Program-made: the position numbers and the translations under genes
Assembly: GCF_003334405.1 (NCBI RefSeq)
Contig: NZ_QOWM01000001.1
DNA from: Escherichia coli
Lineage (GTDB): Bacteria > Pseudomonadota > Gammaproteobacteria > Enterobacterales > Enterobacteriaceae
DNA length: 64,000 nt
Reading direction: 5' to 3' (one strand)
Notes under the pieces: generated by a model
What the model was told of the DNA's origin: nothing
Database searches by the model: none
The model's input: only the letters and a program-made list of their open reading frames with translations
Part shown: positions 41,262 through 49,185 of the stretch, in pieces
Numbering within the stretch: position 1 is the first letter of the stretch
How the letters are laid out: every line of letters starts with the position of its first letter

Positions 41262-41395
41262 CAACCAAACGACTCGGGGTGCCCTTCTGCGTGAAGGCTG
41301 AGAAATACCCGTATCACCTGATCTGGATAATGCCAGCGTAGGGAAGTCACGGACCACCAGGTCATTGCTTCTTCACGTTATGGCAGGAGCAAACT
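41262..41395 (+). promoter_or_regulatory. TPP (THI-box) riboswitch in thiM leader
   Basis: Leader contains ACGACTCGGGGTGCCCTTCTGCGTGAAGGCTGAGAAATACCCGTATCACCTGATCTGGATAATGCCAGCGTAGGGAAGTC, the classic thiM TPP aptamer, with SD GGCAGGAGC just before the ATG. Boundaries approximate. Confidence 0.85.
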
Positions 41396-42981: not shown

Positions 42982-43045
42982 GCACCGTACTATAGCTGCT
43001 TTGGTTATTGTCAGCCTTTGGCACTGACATTCAGGGATGAAACCA

Positions 43046-43864
43046 ATGCAGCTGAGAATCACCAGTCGAAAAAAATTCACCGCTTTATTATGCGCTCTTG
43101 GGCTAATTTCCATCGTTGCAATTTGTCCACGTCAGACGGTGAATTTTTTCTATTCGACAGCAGTTCAGATTAAAGACTACATCCACTTCTACGGTTATCG
43201 CCCGGTTAAATCTTTCGCTATTCGCATTCCTGCCAGTTACACCATTCACGGAATAGATGTTTCGCGCTGGCAGGAGCGGATCGACTGGCAGCGGGTGGCA
43301 AAAATGCGCGACAACGGTATCCGCTTACAGTTTGCTTTTATTAAGGCGACGGAAGGCGAAAAGCTGGTGGACCCCTATTTTTCGCGTAACTGGCAACTAA
43401 GCCGCGAAAATGGCCTGCTGCGCGGGGCGTATCATTATTTCTCCCCGTCGGTAGCAGCGCCTGTTCAGGCGCGATTATTTCTGCAAACGGTGGATTTCTC
43501 ACAAGGCGATTTCCCTGCCGTGCTGGACGTAGAAGAACGGGGAAAATTATCGGCAAAAGAATTACGCAAGAGGGTAAGTCAGTGGCTAAAAATGGTCGAA
43601 AAAAGTACGGGGAAAAAGCCGATTATTTACTCAGGAGCCGTTTTTTATCACACGAATCTGGCGGGCTATTTCAATGAATATCCGTGGTGGGTGGCTCACT
43701 ACTATCAACGTCGTCCGGACAATGACGGCATGTCCTGGCGCTTCTGGCAGCATTCCGACCGTGGACAGGTAGATGGCATCAATGGTCCGGTGGATTTTAA
43801 TGTGTTTAATGGCACGGTGGAGGAGTTGCAGGCATTCGTTGATGGGATTAAAGAAACGCCTTAA
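43046..43864 (+). CDS. yegX: GH25-family lysozyme-like protein with N-terminal membrane anchor
   Basis: Track ORF 43037..43864; second ATG at 43046 has better SD spacing; GH25-type family assigned from remembered YegX. Confidence 0.8.
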   Translation: MQLRITSRKKFTALLCALGLISIVAICPRQTVNFFYSTAVQIKDYIHFYGYRPVKSFAIRIPASYTIHGIDVSRWQERIDWQRVAKMRDNGIRLQFAFIKATEGEKLVDPYFSRNWQLSRENGLLRGAYHYFSPSVAAPVQARLFLQTVDFSQGDFPAVLDVEERGKLSAKELRKRVSQWLKMVEKSTGKKPIIYSGAVFYHTNLAGYFNEYPWWVAHYYQRRPDNDGMSWRFWQHSDRGQVDGINGPVDFNVFNGTVEELQAFVDGIKETP

Positions 43865-43915: not shown

Positions 43916-44662
43916 ATGGAACAAGCGCATACCCAGCTGATTGCCCAACTGAACGAGCGTATTTTAGCGGCGGATAACACGCCGCTTTATATTAAGTTTG
44001 CCGAAACGGTAAAAAATGCCGTGCGCAGCGGGGTGCTGGAGCATGGCAATATTTTGCCCGGTGAGCGTGATTTAAGTCAGTTAACCGGCGTTTCGCGCAT
44101 TACGGTGCGCAAGGCGATGCAGGCGCTGGAAGAAGAGGGCGTGGTGACGCGTTCGCGTGGTTACGGCACGCAGATCAACAACATCTTCGAATACTCGTTG
44201 AAAGAAGCGCGAGGTTTTTCTCAGCAGGTGGTATTGCGCGGGAAAAAGCCCGATACGCTATGGGTTAACAAGCGTGTCGTGAAATGTCCCGAAGAAGTCG
44301 CGCAGCAGCTGGCGGTCGAAGCGGGAAGTGATGTCTTTTTGCTTAAGCGTATTCGCTATGTCGATGAAGAAGCGGTATCGATTGAGGAATCGTGGGTTCC
44401 GGCGCATTTAATTCATGATGTTGATGCCATCGGGATTTCACTTTATGACTATTTCCGCAGCCAGCACATTTACCCACAACGTACGCGTTCCCGCGTTAGC
44501 GCCCGGATGCCGGATGCCGAGTTTCAGTCACATATTCAGTTAGATAGCAAAATACCGGTGCTGGTGATCAAGCAAGTGGCGCTTGACCAACAGCAACGGC
44601 CTATTGAGTACAGCATTAGCCACTGTCGCAGCGATCTATACGTTTTTGTGTGCGAGGAGTAG
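43916..44662 (+). CDS. yegW: GntR-family transcriptional regulator (HTH plus UTRA-type domain)
   Basis: 248 aa; N-terminal GntR HTH region (ERDLSQLTGVSRITVRKAMQALEEEGVV). Confidence 0.85.
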   Translation: MEQAHTQLIAQLNERILAADNTPLYIKFAETVKNAVRSGVLEHGNILPGERDLSQLTGVSRITVRKAMQALEEEGVVTRSRGYGTQINNIFEYSLKEARGFSQQVVLRGKKPDTLWVNKRVVKCPEEVAQQLAVEAGSDVFLLKRIRYVDEEAVSIEESWVPAHLIHDVDAIGISLYDYFRSQHIYPQRTRSRVSARMPDAEFQSHIQLDSKIPVLVIKQVALDQQQRPIEYSISHCRSDLYVFVCEE

Positions 44663-45601
44663 TTCCTCGCGCGTTGGCGCACAATCACCGCCCCGATGCC
44701 CGACAACCCACGACGCCACTGCATTGCCCAGTAATACGGCATCCGCCAGTGGCAGACCAGAGGCCAGCCCGGCAAGTACGCCACCGGCATGACTGTCGCC
44801 CGCCCCAATGGTGTCGACAACTTGCGTTGGAAATGCCGGAATGCAGCCAGAAGCGTCGTTGCTGAAATACCATGCGCCTTCTTTATCGAGACGAACGATC
44901 AACGGCGCGGCAAATTTCTCCTGCCATTGCTTGCCAAGTGTTGTTATCTCTGCGGATAAAGCAAAACGTTCGGCGGCAATCTCAGCCTCTTGACGATTGA
45001 GCGACACTAAAGGTCGACAGGCCATGATCCGCGCCAGTAATGCATCCGGGATATCGCCAATACGTGGGCCAAAATCGATAAACGGCGTCACGTCTTGCAG
45101 CTCTTCCAGCCATTCCACTAACAATTCGCCGCAGGGCGAGGCCAGTTGATAACCGGAAAAATAGAGCAGGCTGCCAGGCGCAACGGTTAATCGCGCCAGC
45201 CACTGGCGATTCCACTGATTTTCCACACCGCTGAATGACATAAAAGTGCGTTCGCCATCCGGCTCAACCAGCGCCAGACACCAGCCGTTATCACCTTCGG
45301 CGTTATCGATCAGGCTGATTAAGCCCTCTTTTGCCATCCGGTTGCGAATAATCTCCGCCCACACGCCCTGACCGAGCGGCAAGGCATTACCCGCTTCGAT
45401 GCCGAGGCGCTTTAACGCCACGGCAATATTCAGTGCGCAGCCGCCAACGTTAACGCTCTGCTGTTTCAGTTCGATATCGCACCCACGCCAGGGGAGGGCA
45501 TAAGCGTCGGCGATCACGTCAATGACCGCCGCGCCGACGACCATCACCGGCTGACGCGTGGTTAATTCAGGCAGCAGCGTGTGTAATCGAGCGCCGCTCA
45601 T
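44636..45601 (-). CDS. yegV: PfkB-family sugar/nucleoside kinase
   Basis: 321 aa; C-terminal PfkB motif DTIGAGDSHAGGVLAG. Confidence 0.85.
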   Translation of the reverse strand: MSGARLHTLLPELTTRQPVMVVGAAVIDVIADAYALPWRGCDIELKQQSVNVGGCALNIAVALKRLGIEAGNALPLGQGVWAEIIRNRMAKEGLISLIDNAEGDNGWCLALVEPDGERTFMSFSGVENQWNRQWLARLTVAPGSLLYFSGYQLASPCGELLVEWLEELQDVTPFIDFGPRIGDIPDALLARIMACRPLVSLNRQEAEIAAERFALSAEITTLGKQWQEKFAAPLIVRLDKEGAWYFSNDASGCIPAFPTQVVDTIGAGDSHAGGVLAGLASGLPLADAVLLGNAVASWVVGHRGGDCAPTREELLLAHKNV

Positions 45602-46602
45602 ACCGCCTCCCGTTGTTGACGATATTTCGCCAGCGCTGTGGCATAGCGGTTGAAATCAAGCTGATTTACCGCATCCAGTTCCGCCTTTAACGCAGGATCG
45701 ATAGCGTTAACGCCATGCAACGCGCCGCAAATTGCCGTCGCCATAGCACCGATGGTGTCTGTGTCGCCGCCAAGGTTAGCGCACAGGACGGCGCAGCGAT
45801 TCGGGTCGGTTTGTGCCAGTTCAACCAGCGCAATGGCGCACGGAACGGACTCAATAGTGCTGGTACCTGCGCCAACGACCTGGTAAAGCTGTTCGCTGGC
45901 GGATTCGGTGCCGTCGGCATTGCGCACAATTTTCAGCGCAATCTCCAGCCGCGCCGCCAGTGAGGCGCTGAACGTAGTGATGCGTTTTTGCTGTGCATGT
46001 CGCGCAATTGAAGGCAGGGAATCAACAATCGCTGACCAGCTTTCTCCGTCAATGGCACGAGAAATCGCCCATGCGATGACTACCGCGCCTGCAACCGCCA
46101 GATCGGATTTATGGGTCGGGCTGGACGCCAGCGCTACATCATCAATAAAGGAATCAACATCACGCGCCGGAAGCAAACAACCTAATGGCGAGACGCGCAT
46201 CGCTGCGCCGTTGGTCACGCCGTTGTTTTCCAGTTCAGCAACGGGTTTACCGTCGCGAATGGCGTTAAGCGCAATCTTCGAGGTCGGACCTAGTACGTTT
46301 TTGTTAAAGGCGTCGAAACGCAGCGCCCAGTCGAGAATATTACGCCCAATCAGATCCGGATCGATCTTGCCTTCACGTTCCAGTAACGCATCCGCCAGAC
46401 ACAGCGCCATCGAGGTATCGTCGGTGAATTCGGCGCGGTTAAAATAACAGGCCGCGTTATTCTCCTTTGGTCCAGGAAGAAAACGGTCAATCCAGCCAAA
46501 GTGTGCTTTAACGCGGCTGCGTGGCCAAAGCTCGGAGGGCATCCCCATCGCATCCCCTAACGCCTGCCCATAAAGAGCACCGAGAATACGTTCTGTTTTC
46601 AT
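45598..46602 (-). CDS. yegU: ADP-ribosylglycohydrolase-family protein
   Basis: 334 aa; overlaps yegV start by 4 nt; family assigned from remembered YegU. Confidence 0.85.
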   Translation of the reverse strand: MKTERILGALYGQALGDAMGMPSELWPRSRVKAHFGWIDRFLPGPKENNAACYFNRAEFTDDTSMALCLADALLEREGKIDPDLIGRNILDWALRFDAFNKNVLGPTSKIALNAIRDGKPVAELENNGVTNGAAMRVSPLGCLLPARDVDSFIDDVALASSPTHKSDLAVAGAVVIAWAISRAIDGESWSAIVDSLPSIARHAQQKRITTFSASLAARLEIALKIVRNADGTESASEQLYQVVGAGTSTIESVPCAIALVELAQTDPNRCAVLCANLGGDTDTIGAMATAICGALHGVNAIDPALKAELDAVNQLDFNRYATALAKYRQQREAV

Positions 46603-47876
46603 TTAACTTCCCCTTGTGTCAACGCAATATCGCGATCATCGACCTTGATAGCCGTAATTTCGTTGTCGGATTCGCGGAAAAAAATCATGAACAGCACGGC
46701 GATAATGGCAATCATCACCGCGCCGAAAGTCCACATCCCGGACCAGTTGAAAGTCAGTCCGTTTACCGGTTCCTGATAAGCGAACATCTTTTCCATCATC
46801 ACACCGCCAAGACGATAGCCGAGCAAACTGCCGAAGCCCTGGCAGCAGAGCGTGATCAGCCCCTGCGCAGCGGTACGCATATGCACGGGGGCTTTTTTAT
46901 CGACATAGATGTAAGCGGTAACGTAGTAAAAATCGTAACTTACGCCGTGAAGCAAAATACCGAGGAACAGTAACGCGTAGGTGAAATATTCATCCGCACT
47001 ACCGTAAATAAAGAAGCCATAGCGGATCGCAGCGGTGACCAGACCAAGCAATAATACCTTTTTGATACCAAAGCGTTTAGTGAAAAACGGCAATGCCAGC
47101 ATAAAGAAGATTTCAGAGAACTGGCCGAGCGTCATCCAGCCGGTGGCGTTTTTCATGCCAACTTCGGTCAGATAACCGTTGGCAAAGATGTAATAGAACG
47201 CCAGTGGCATCGCAAACAGGAATGAACAGAAGAAAAAGACGAGGAAGTTTTTATCGCGCAGCAGGATCAGCGCATCCAGGCCGAGCATGACTTTAATATC
47301 CATTTTGCCGGTGCTTTTTGGTGGCGTGTCGGGCAGGAAAAACGCAAACACACCGAGCAGAGCAGAACTTCCGGCGGTAATCAGCAGCGGGATGTTAGTC
47401 GGTGAGATATCGGCATACCCCAGTATTTGCGGCAAGAAACCACATGCCAGACCGGAGGCAATCCAGCCGATAGTGCCCATCACACGAATGCGCGGGAAAT
47501 CACGCTCAACATCCGGCACGTTGGCAAAAGCGATGCTGTTAGTCAGCGCAATGGTCGGCATATAGGTTAGCGAGTAGGCCAGCAGTAACGGGAAGAACCC
47601 GGCAAAAGTGGTCTGTTGCGCAGCGAAATACATCAGCAGCGCGCCTGCGAACATCAATACCGCCAGCACTTTCTGCGCCGAGAAAAAGCGGTCAGTGATG
47701 GAGCCAACCAGAATTGGCGACAGGATCGCCGCAATGGCGGTACAGGCATACGACCAGCCAATTTCTCCGGCACTAAAACCGCTTTTACTTAACCATAACC
47801 ACAATGGCACAAACCACGCGCCCCAGATAAACCATTCAACAAACATCATGAACGACAGCTTTGCTGTTGTTTTCAT
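46599..47876 (-). CDS. yegT: MFS nucleoside:H+ symporter-family transporter
   Basis: 425 aa polytopic membrane protein; overlaps yegU start by 4 nt. Confidence 0.85.
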   Translation of the reverse strand: MKTTAKLSFMMFVEWFIWGAWFVPLWLWLSKSGFSAGEIGWSYACTAIAAILSPILVGSITDRFFSAQKVLAVLMFAGALLMYFAAQQTTFAGFFPLLLAYSLTYMPTIALTNSIAFANVPDVERDFPRIRVMGTIGWIASGLACGFLPQILGYADISPTNIPLLITAGSSALLGVFAFFLPDTPPKSTGKMDIKVMLGLDALILLRDKNFLVFFFCSFLFAMPLAFYYIFANGYLTEVGMKNATGWMTLGQFSEIFFMLALPFFTKRFGIKKVLLLGLVTAAIRYGFFIYGSADEYFTYALLFLGILLHGVSYDFYYVTAYIYVDKKAPVHMRTAAQGLITLCCQGFGSLLGYRLGGVMMEKMFAYQEPVNGLTFNWSGMWTFGAVMIAIIAVLFMIFFRESDNEITAIKVDDRDIALTQGEVK

Positions 47877-48132
47877 CTTTTAATTCCTTCATGACAGGTA
47901 ATGTAAGGTACGCGATGACAATACCACTTAATAATACCTTTTAAATACCTTTGCGGTGAAAACTTGACCGCGCTAACATTTTTTCTGATGAATCGAGCCA
48001 ACAGAAAACGCTGAAAAAACATCCAAAAGATGGAAAAACTCGCCCGTAACGACCAGGATTATGATTGCCCGCAAAAGGCGGGCCAGGAAAATCCATAGCC
48101 GATATCCAATCGGAATTTACGGGAGCATAGTA

Positions 48133-49185
48133 ATGACAGATATTGCGCAGTTGCTTGGCAAAGACGCCGACAACCTTTTACAGCACCGTTGTATGACTAT
48201 TCCTTCTGACCAGCTTTATCTCCCCGGACATGACTACGTAGACCGCGTGATGATTGACAATAATCGCCCGCCTGCGGTGTTACGTAATATGCAGACGTTG
48301 TACAACACCGGGCGTCTGGCTGGCACAGGATATCTTTCTATTCTGCCGGTTGACCAGGGCGTTGAGCACTCTGCCGGAGCTTCATTTGCTGCTAACCCGC
48401 TCTACTTTGACCCGAAAAACATTGTTGAACTGGCGATCGAAGCGGGCTGTAACTGTGTGGCGTCAACTTACGGCGTGCTGGCGTCGGTATCGCGGCGTTA
48501 TGCGCATCGCATTCCATTCCTCGTCAAACTTAATCACAACGAGACGCTAAGTTACCCGAATACCTACGATCAAACGCTGTATGCCAGCGTGGAGCAGGCG
48601 TTCAACATGGGCGCGGTTGCGGTTGGTGCGACTATCTATTTTGGCTCGGAAGAGTCACGTCGCCAGATTGAAGAAATTTCTGCGGCTTTTGAACGTGCGC
48701 ACGAGCTGGGCATGGTGACAGTGCTGTGGGCCTATTTGCGTAACTCCGCCTTTAAGAAAGATGGCGTTGATTACCATGTTTCCGCCGACCTGACTGGTCA
48801 GGCGAACCATCTGGCGGCGACCATTGGCGCGGACATCGTCAAACAGAAAATGGCGGAAAATAACGGCGGTTATAAAGCGATTAATTACGGTTATACCGAC
48901 GATCGCGTGTACAGCAAGTTAACCAGCGAAAACCCGATTGATCTGGTGCGTTATCAGTTAGCTAACTGCTATATGGGCCGGGCTGGGTTGATAAACTCCG
49001 GCGGTGCTGCAGGCGGTGAAACTGACCTCAGTGATGCAGTGCGTACTGCGGTTATCAACAAACGCGCTGGCGGAATGGGGCTGATTCTTGGACGTAAGGC
49101 GTTCAAGAAATCGATGGCTGACGGCGTGAAACTGATTAACGCCGTGCAGGACGTTTATCTCGATAGCAAAATTACTATTGCCTGA
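48133..49185 (+). CDS. fbaB: class I fructose-bisphosphate aldolase
   Basis: ATG at 48133 with GGGAG SD gives [34 protein letters not shown] and 350 aa. Confidence 0.92.

Follow-up and report, generated by a model that had tools for sequence, protein, structure and literature searches.

The yegT-yegU-yegV operon of Escherichia coli and the convergent repressor gene yegW (ggaR) lie in the 64,000-nucleotide (nt) stretch of contig NZ_QOWM01000001.1 analysed here (hereafter, the window). We consider it somewhat probable that the operon encodes a repressor-controlled pathway that takes up a non-canonical riboside, other than those of A, G, C and U, phosphorylates it at the 5' position and cleaves its glycosidic bond. 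In this scheme YegT would import the riboside together with a proton, YegV would phosphorylate the 5'-hydroxyl of its ribose, and YegU, a predicted two-metal glycohydrolase of the ADP-ribosylglycohydrolase (ARH) fold, would cut at ribose C1, separating the aglycone from ribose 5-phosphate. GgaR would hold the operon off through a triple GGTATT operator positioned over the -10 element and a weaker copy of it within yegT, and a phosphorylated nucleotide-like ligand would release the repressor; this ligand is ADP-glucose in vitro and may be the 5'-phosphorylated intermediate of the pathway in vivo.

The locus is a known, annotated and partly characterised operon with a published repressor, and is not novel; new in this analysis are the linkage and fusion of ARH hydrolases to PfkB kinases, the residue-level comparison of YegU and YegV, and the conservation of the operator. 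yegT, yegU and yegV are core genes among the E. coli K-12 genes still without an assigned function. The gains are a candidate operator sequence and a substrate class narrowed to ribosyl compounds other than those of A, G, C and U, probably handled as the 5'-phosphate. The question of the substrate is thereby sharpened by the ARH-PfkB fusions, the differences in the kinase pocket and the defined candidate operator. Its assignment would give the ARH fold a small-molecule metabolic role and delimit a subfamily of PfkB kinases. It would also account for an analogous operon that Salmonella needs to persist in the pig gut, and settle whether the reported link to ADP-glucose and glycogen is direct.

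Conservation of the yegTUVW locus

The first-pass annotation of this DNA had described yegW facing a convergent yegVUT operon with 4-nt overlaps, composed of a nucleoside:H+ symporter (NHS) family transporter, an ADP-ribosylglycohydrolase family enzyme and a PfkB-family kinase, and adjoined by a GntR/UTRA-type regulator. The coordinates of the open reading frames (ORFs; Table 1) agree exactly with that layout, both the yegT/yegU and the yegU/yegV junctions are ATGA, with stop and start codons overlapping by 4 nt, and the profile matches given below bear out all four family assignments. The accompanying description of a ribosyl-compound module without an assigned substrate still agrees with the literature on YegT, YegU and YegV.

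A 4.8-kb yegTUVW block is present at 95–100% identity in 5425 of 5426 complete E. coli genomes, in which RefSeq uses the names yegT, yegU, yegV and yegW. Scanning of one genome per species across the Enterobacterales yielded 80 loci. Of these, 78 have the order yegT-yegU-yegV with yegW facing it, and 70 have the yegT/yegU ATGA overlap, with median identities to the E. coli proteins of 91% (YegT), 89% (YegW), 83% (YegU) and 74% (YegV). The four are real, conserved genes and not chance ORFs. Even the overlap between the 3' ends of yegW and yegV is retained at its 27-nt length in 73 of 78 species loci. The yegV-yegW pair is among the excludons defined from RNA-seq coverage (PMC12288877), and antisense interference between the repressor gene and its target operon through the yegV overlap is possible. 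YegU, YegV and YegW stay below every curated NCBIfam equivalog cut-off, so that homology gives no specific function for them.

YegT retains the ribose contacts of a nucleoside transporter

YegT scores 655 bits against the nucleoside permease model TIGR00889, for which the cut-off is 446, and its crystal structure has been determined at 3.1 Å (Xiao et al. 2025, PMC11979927). It shares family and fold with the E. coli NHS transporters NupG and XapB, as well as the GxxxD protonation site, and superposes on NupG with a root-mean-square deviation of 1.57 Å, although the two proteins are only 27% identical and differ in the residues that contact the base. The ribose contacts of NupG, R136, T140 and E264, are identical in YegT (PMC8042404), whereas the base-contacting residues are not conserved, and no significant binding of uridine, adenosine, cytidine or guanosine was measured by isothermal titration calorimetry (PMC11979927). 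By its TIGR00889 score, its structure, and the published ribose contacts and GxxxD site (PMC8042404, PMC11979927), YegT is a member of the NHS family and a predicted transporter. Ribose contacts that are kept, base contacts that are changed and the lack of binding of the four nucleosides argue for a ribosyl substrate other than the common nucleosides, and we infer a small riboside as the substrate of the operon.

YegU is an ARH-fold enzyme with intact metal ligands

The best solved relatives of YegU in the PDB are MJ1187 (E = 1.9e-29) and ARH3 (E = 2e-16), and Pfam family PF03747 is assigned to the 99%-identical YegU cluster as well as to all 120 homologues listed. Aligned to ARH3, YegU keeps E24, T60-D61-D62 and D280-D282-T283, which match the residues that we take to be the two-metal ligands of ARH3 (E41, T76-D77-D78 and D314-D316-T317). 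Also kept are NGAAMR (residues 131-136) and a TH motif (H164); the corresponding NG(G/A)AMR and TH motifs of ARH3 presumably contact the ribose phosphate. The TDD and DxDT motifs are invariant in 12 fusion homologues of YegU. With metal ligands and both motifs in place, YegU should be catalytically competent. A 3-residue deletion shortens the loop that in ARH3 carries F143 and Y149, which we assume to stack on adenine, and this is a hint that the substrate may not be a full ADP-ribosyl group.

The fold and the full set of metal ligands are common to YegU, ARH3, DraG and Tri1, and the only NCBIfam models that match YegU are DraG (79.5 bits, cut-off 337) and Tri1 (69 bits, cut-off 490). One could thus read YegU as a protein de-ADP-ribosylase like DraG, Tri1 or ARH1, with the transporter and the kinase as unrelated neighbours. 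However, both scores are far under their cut-offs, so that YegU, although a genuine ARH-family protein, does not class as a DraG or Tri1 equivalog. ARH3, DraG and Tri1 act on modified proteins or poly(ADP-ribose), whereas YegU sits in a transporter-kinase operon, where its gene is translationally coupled to yegT and yegV by the ATGA overlaps and co-transcribed with them. In addition, homologues of YegU are fused to PfkB kinases, no ADP-ribosyltransferase gene was found near yegU among the ORFs of the window or in the RefSeq annotation, and the presumed adenine-stacking loop is the one shortened in YegU. Taken together, these observations make a protein de-ADP-ribosylase very improbable.

YegV differs from ribokinase in the sugar pocket

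YegV matches the PfkB family (PF00294, E = 2.9e-56) and has the GG lid dipeptide, the NxxE motif and the GAGD motif of this family. Ribokinase is both its best-scoring kinase model and its best PDB relative, but the score against the ribokinase model is 82 bits with a cut-off of 300; by these matches YegV is a PfkB kinase and not a ribokinase equivalog. A 2025 survey lists it as an uncharacterized sugar kinase.

In order to compare the active sites, YegV and 12 ARH-linked PfkB domains were aligned to E. coli ribokinase RbsK (sequence identical to PDB 1gqt). D16, G41-G42, N46, NxxE (N187/E190) and GAGD-D255 of RbsK are kept in YegV and in all of the ARH-linked domains. Three further RbsK residues, N14, K43 and E143, which we take from the 1rkd structure to be ligands of free ribose, are lost: N14 is V and K43 is C in YegV, where E143 is absent, and across the ARH-linked domains N14 is replaced by hydrophobic residues and K43 by Cys, Ser or a gap, while E143 is not conserved. 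A DNGW motif is common to YegV and the ARH-linked PfkBs and is not present in ribokinase. The loss of the three residues and the new tryptophan would fit a pocket for a substituted ribose, that is, one accommodating something attached to the sugar.

Hydrolase and kinase are linked in distant relatives

A search for YegU homologues over 1.84 billion representative proteins found 6972, of which 234 were below 1e-30. In six of the seven distant representatives whose contigs were examined a PfkB gene adjoins the ARH gene; the transporter is usually an NCS1 permease, not an NHS protein, and a divergent GntR/UTRA gene recurs. Furthermore, 11 of the 12 long homologues of YegU are ARH-PfkB fusions, found in both domain orders. 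The invariant core is the hydrolase with the kinase, and the transporter is interchangeable (NHS, NCS1, ABC or ECF) while always being an importer. A fixed pair of enzymes with a swapped importer argues that the two act in succession on a single small molecule that has been taken up. Somewhat short of an even chance, in our estimate, is the broader proposition that yegTUV represents, in E. coli, a widespread pathway built on an ARH-fold small-molecule glycosidase and a partner kinase from a PfkB subfamily of its own, either as separate proteins or as a fusion; the non-canonical riboside would be scavenged through high-affinity importers (NCS1, ECF, ABC), and ADP-glucose would be a mere mimic of the true phosphorylated inducer.

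E. coli already has a ribokinase, RbsK, beside which a dedicated or even fused kinase would argue for a specific substrate. The substitutions in the pocket, this redundancy and the analogy with the pseudouridine pathway favour phosphorylation first and hydrolysis second. The reverse order, in which YegU would split the imported riboside, or a ribosyl-ribose (disaccharide) nucleoside, into free ribose and an aglycone or nucleoside, and YegV would be a dedicated ribokinase, agrees with the rank of ribokinase among the kinase models and PDB relatives of YegV, with the gene order (transporter, hydrolase, kinase), with the cleavage of O-glycosidic ribose-ribose bonds by ARH3, a relative of YegU, and with the nucleoside phosphorylase genes (PNP_UDP_1) that adjoin the module in two relatives, L008 and L010. 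Nevertheless, the low ribokinase score, the loss of N14, K43 and E143 in YegV and all ARH-linked PfkBs, and the apparent redundancy of an extra ribokinase lead us to regard the hydrolase-first order as unlikely. For the broader proposition above, candidate substrates include alpha-linked ribosides, nucleosides that are modified or damaged, and ribosyl-ribose fragments of poly(ADP-ribose).

The fusions that were located lie in varied surroundings. That in L017 (1226-3247, P0230) shares its operon with an ABC importer and a GntR/UTRA gene, and the importer is followed by another ARH gene, which stands alone. The L018 fusion (3842-5719, P0206) is found behind ECF T and A components, and that in L019 (3513-5333, P0189) is flanked by two 5-formyltetrahydrofolate cyclo-ligase-like genes and a TonB-dependent receptor gene. 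In L010 (1337-15029) the ARH-PfkB pair lies amid two NCS1 permeases, an amidohydrolase of the chlorohydrolase/deaminase family and the nucleoside phosphorylase, together with glyoxylate carboligase, hydroxypyruvate isomerase, tartronate semialdehyde reductase, glycerate kinase and a carbamoyltransferase. This gene set, typical of allantoin and purine breakdown, is a possible hint at an oxidised or ureide-type riboside, although it is a single case. Another distant locus is near TenA; no neighbour clue recurs between loci. When the NCS1, ABC-binding and putative ECF S components were scanned against NCBIfam, the matches were weak and sub-threshold (CytX-like, PotD-like and none, respectively).

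GgaR and the ADP-glucose connection

YegW consists of an N-terminal GntR winged helix (residues 29-87, Pfam 7.3e-16) and a C-terminal UTRA effector domain (residues 108-242, 3.5e-36), the combination that defines the HutC subfamily of GntR regulators; its best NCBIfam equivalog is PhnF, at 129 bits with a cut-off of 157. In being a local, single-operon repressor with this architecture and release by a phosphorylated small molecule, it resembles NagR, DasR, TreR and PhnF of the HutC/PhnF subfamily. It differs from them in its candidate operator, which is made of direct GGTATT repeats at 11/13-nt spacing instead of one short palindrome.

Saito et al. (2024) renamed YegW as GgaR and described it as a single-target repressor of yegTUV (PMC10819704); the experiment combining a yegW deletion with expression analysis, which the first-pass annotation had proposed, is already published there. 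ChIP-chip gave one genome-wide peak, at fbaB/yegT, and in gel shifts GgaR bound a 190-bp probe upstream of yegT and, less strongly, probe-5, which spans nt 571-869 of the yegT ORF (PMC10819704). A 3.3-kb yegTUV transcript was visible only in the yegW deletion, with approximately 30-fold derepression, and yegTUV mRNA rose 3-fold with more glucose (PMC10819704). Of the three ligands tested in vitro, ADP-glucose (10-100 µM) freed GgaR from DNA in gel shifts, whereas glucose and ADP failed to do so; glycogen was roughly doubled at 6 h in the yegW deletion and reported as lowered in a yegV deletion (PMC10819704).

These results lend direct, though thin, experimental support to the ADP-glucose/glycogen module of Saito et al., in which YegTUV would import or make ADP-glucose or a precursor, GgaR would sense ADP-glucose, and derepression would raise glycogen. 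However, the effector evidence comprises those three ligands in vitro, and the glycogen link is termed 'somewhat ambiguous' by its own authors (PMC10819704). The proposal offers no chemistry for the ARH enzyme or the PfkB kinase, and it leaves the wide distribution of the module with vitamin-type and nucleobase-type importers without an explanation. The ARH-PfkB pair accompanies NCS1, ABC and ECF importers in varied contexts, and no glycogen genes were seen around it in the distant loci examined. ARH chemistry cuts at ribose C1, and ADP-glucose has no such scissile bond. We consider a module dedicated to ADP-glucose quite unlikely.

A triple GGTATT element upstream of yegT

The GgaR paper gives no binding motif (PMC10819704). 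A repeat finder revealed a 38-nt direct repeat, 79% identical, between the fbaB/yegT spacer (47912-47949) and the yegT ORF (47032-47069); 30 of the 38 positions match, compared with a maximum of 26 of 38 in 300 shuffles. The sequence of the spacer copy, on the yegT strand, is GGTATTTAAAAGGTATTATTAAGTGGTATTGTCATCGC, in which the three GGTATT units start 11 and 13 nt apart, and both copies fall within the two probes bound by GgaR (PMC10819704). GGTAT-N6-GGTATT occurs twice in the 64-kb window, once in each GgaR-bound region, where 0.01 occurrences would be expected. This motif precedes yegT in 79 of 80 species and has just two matches outside yegT and its upstream region in 969 kb, and the block AAAGGTATTTaAAAGGTATTAT...TGGTA...GTACC is near-invariant over 79 distinct upstream regions while its flanks diverge. 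Since the element occurs only at the two GgaR-bound regions and is kept in nearly all species, we infer that it is a candidate GgaR operator (O1). Its middle GGTATT unit overlaps the predicted -10 hexamer, which suggests that GgaR represses by promoter occlusion; the overlap with a conserved candidate operator is at the same time a supporting point for the predicted promoter.

The GGTAT operator was not found in the distant homologous loci. In one of them, L002, the divergent intergenic region (7851-8000) that separates a GntR/UTRA gene, 31% identical to YegW at the protein level, from an ARH-NCS1-PfkB operon contains the direct repeat AACTGGACTTA / AACTGGATTTA (AACTGGAYTTA, two copies, 11-nt spacing). 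This repeat has the architecture of the E. coli GGTATT array but a different half-site.

A CRP-like box, TGTTA-N6-TCAAG, is present at 47963-47978 on the minus strand (TGTTAGCGCGGTCAAG) and so precedes the predicted -35 of yegT. Conservation over the 79 upstream regions reaches 90% or more at the T, G, A ... T, C, A positions of this box, and a CRP site in the fbaB/yegT spacer has been reported from genomic SELEX (PMC3105977). An Rfam scan returned no RNA family in the yegT leader, the sole match being the thiM riboswitch described below.

Comparison with known riboside pathways

The nearest of the known systems in logic is psuK-psuG-psuT (yeiC-yeiN-yeiM in E. coli), in which a dedicated transporter brings in the nucleoside, a PfkB kinase phosphorylates it at the 5' position and a glycosidase then frees ribose 5-phosphate. 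The first-pass annotation had likened the locus to pseudouridine clusters, and the resemblance holds for this pathway logic; it does not extend to the enzymes, as no PsuG-type glycosidase was found among the ORFs of at least 80 residues in 43916-47876, of which only the four genes match a family, or in the RefSeq annotation, and the locus is not a psu cluster. Unlike the psu operon, yegTUV has a glycosidase of the ARH fold (PF03747) in place of the PsuG fold, and its transporter is an NHS protein.

The three parts of yegTUV are also combined, at a different locus, in Salmonella STM4065-STM4067, which encodes a permease, the kinase STM4066 and a putative ADP-ribosylglycohydrolase, STM4067. In 2003, Dougherty and Downs reportedly observed that the GntR-type gene stm4068 represses this operon. 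STM4066 phosphorylates aminoimidazole riboside (AIRs), itself a non-canonical riboside, and a mutant of STM4067 is attenuated in the pig gut (PMC3161100). No aminoimidazole riboside kinase chain is among the 35 PDB matches of YegV at E ≤ 1e-5, so that YegV and STM4066 do not seem to be close kin.

Several points weigh against the proposed riboside pathway. The kinase-then-hydrolase order is deduced from residue substitutions and from analogy, and for both enzymes the functions of the residues compared, namely N14, K43 and E143 of RbsK and the NG(G/A)AMR and TH motifs of ARH3, are presumed. The nucleoside phosphorylase neighbours in L008 and L010 could fit the hydrolase-first order or a branched route. 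ADP-glucose as the sole reported effector, together with the glycogen phenotypes, points to a different physiology, and full-text literature searches retrieved no substrate assigned to YegT, YegU or YegV. With respect to regulation, the yegTUV promoter is a match from a consensus scan, and such matches are no commoner in the sequence than in shuffles. The GGTAT-N6-GGTATT motif is present inside yegT in 27 of 80 species, and the intragenic copy (O2) showed no extra synonymous-site constraint over 78 orthologues (rank 281 of 404 windows). O2 is therefore taken as probably a recent, lineage-restricted auxiliary site; two single codons (AAG273 in 75 of 78 orthologues, and GTA274) are suggestive only.

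Feature coordinates

Table 1. Genes and predicted regulatory elements of the yegTUVW locus (window positions).
Feature	Position	Strand	Description
yegW (ggaR)	43916-44662	+	248 aa; GntR/HutC-type repressor
yegV	44636-45601	-	321 aa; PfkB-family kinase, distinct subfamily linked to ARH hydrolases
yegU	45598-46602	-	334 aa; ARH-fold enzyme, predicted active
yegT	46599-47876	-	425 aa; NHS family transporter, first gene of the operon
yegW/yegV convergent 3'-end overlap	44636-44662		27 nt, from ORF coordinates
Candidate GgaR/YegW operator O1	47907-47949	-	Three direct GGTATT repeats and inverted GTACC
O1 repeat units	47949-47944, 47938-47933, 47925-47920; inverted GTACC 47911-47907	-	
Predicted sigma-70 yegTUV promoter	47931-47960	-	-35 TTCACC 47960-47955, 18-nt spacer, -10 TATTAT 47936-47931
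Candidate auxiliary intragenic GgaR site O2	47032-47069	-	yegT ORF nt 808-845; 79% identical copy of O1

Flanking genes

The thiM-thiD genes share the strand of yegW, and in most Enterobacterales they are its immediate upstream neighbours. In the window they are preceded by a thiamine pyrophosphate riboswitch (RF00059, 71 bits) at 41265-41361. In most species thiD ends just 32-56 nt ahead of the yegW start, and read-through from thiMD into yegW is conceivable. Adjacency to thiMD was considered as a functional link and rejected: it is kept in 70 of 77 species, but so is adjacency to fbaB, and Pectobacterium keeps yegTUVW with neither neighbour. It is therefore read as inherited synteny and not as functional coupling.

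In E. coli a further gene, yegX (GH25 lysozyme-like, 43037-43864), is inserted between thiD and yegW; it was found in 3 of 77 Enterobacterales loci and is almost confined to Escherichia. A conserved (G/T)ATATACT -10-like element and a CAGGAAAAAGA ribosome-binding site precede yegW, also in E. coli after the yegX insertion. On the other side of the operon, the fbaB ORF occupies 48061-49185; RefSeq places its start 72 nt downstream, at window position 48133, which makes the fbaB/yegT spacer 256 bp and not 184 bp. In E. coli LR-03, used as the annotation reference (L001, 1099-2214), rcnB is split by an IS1A insertion.

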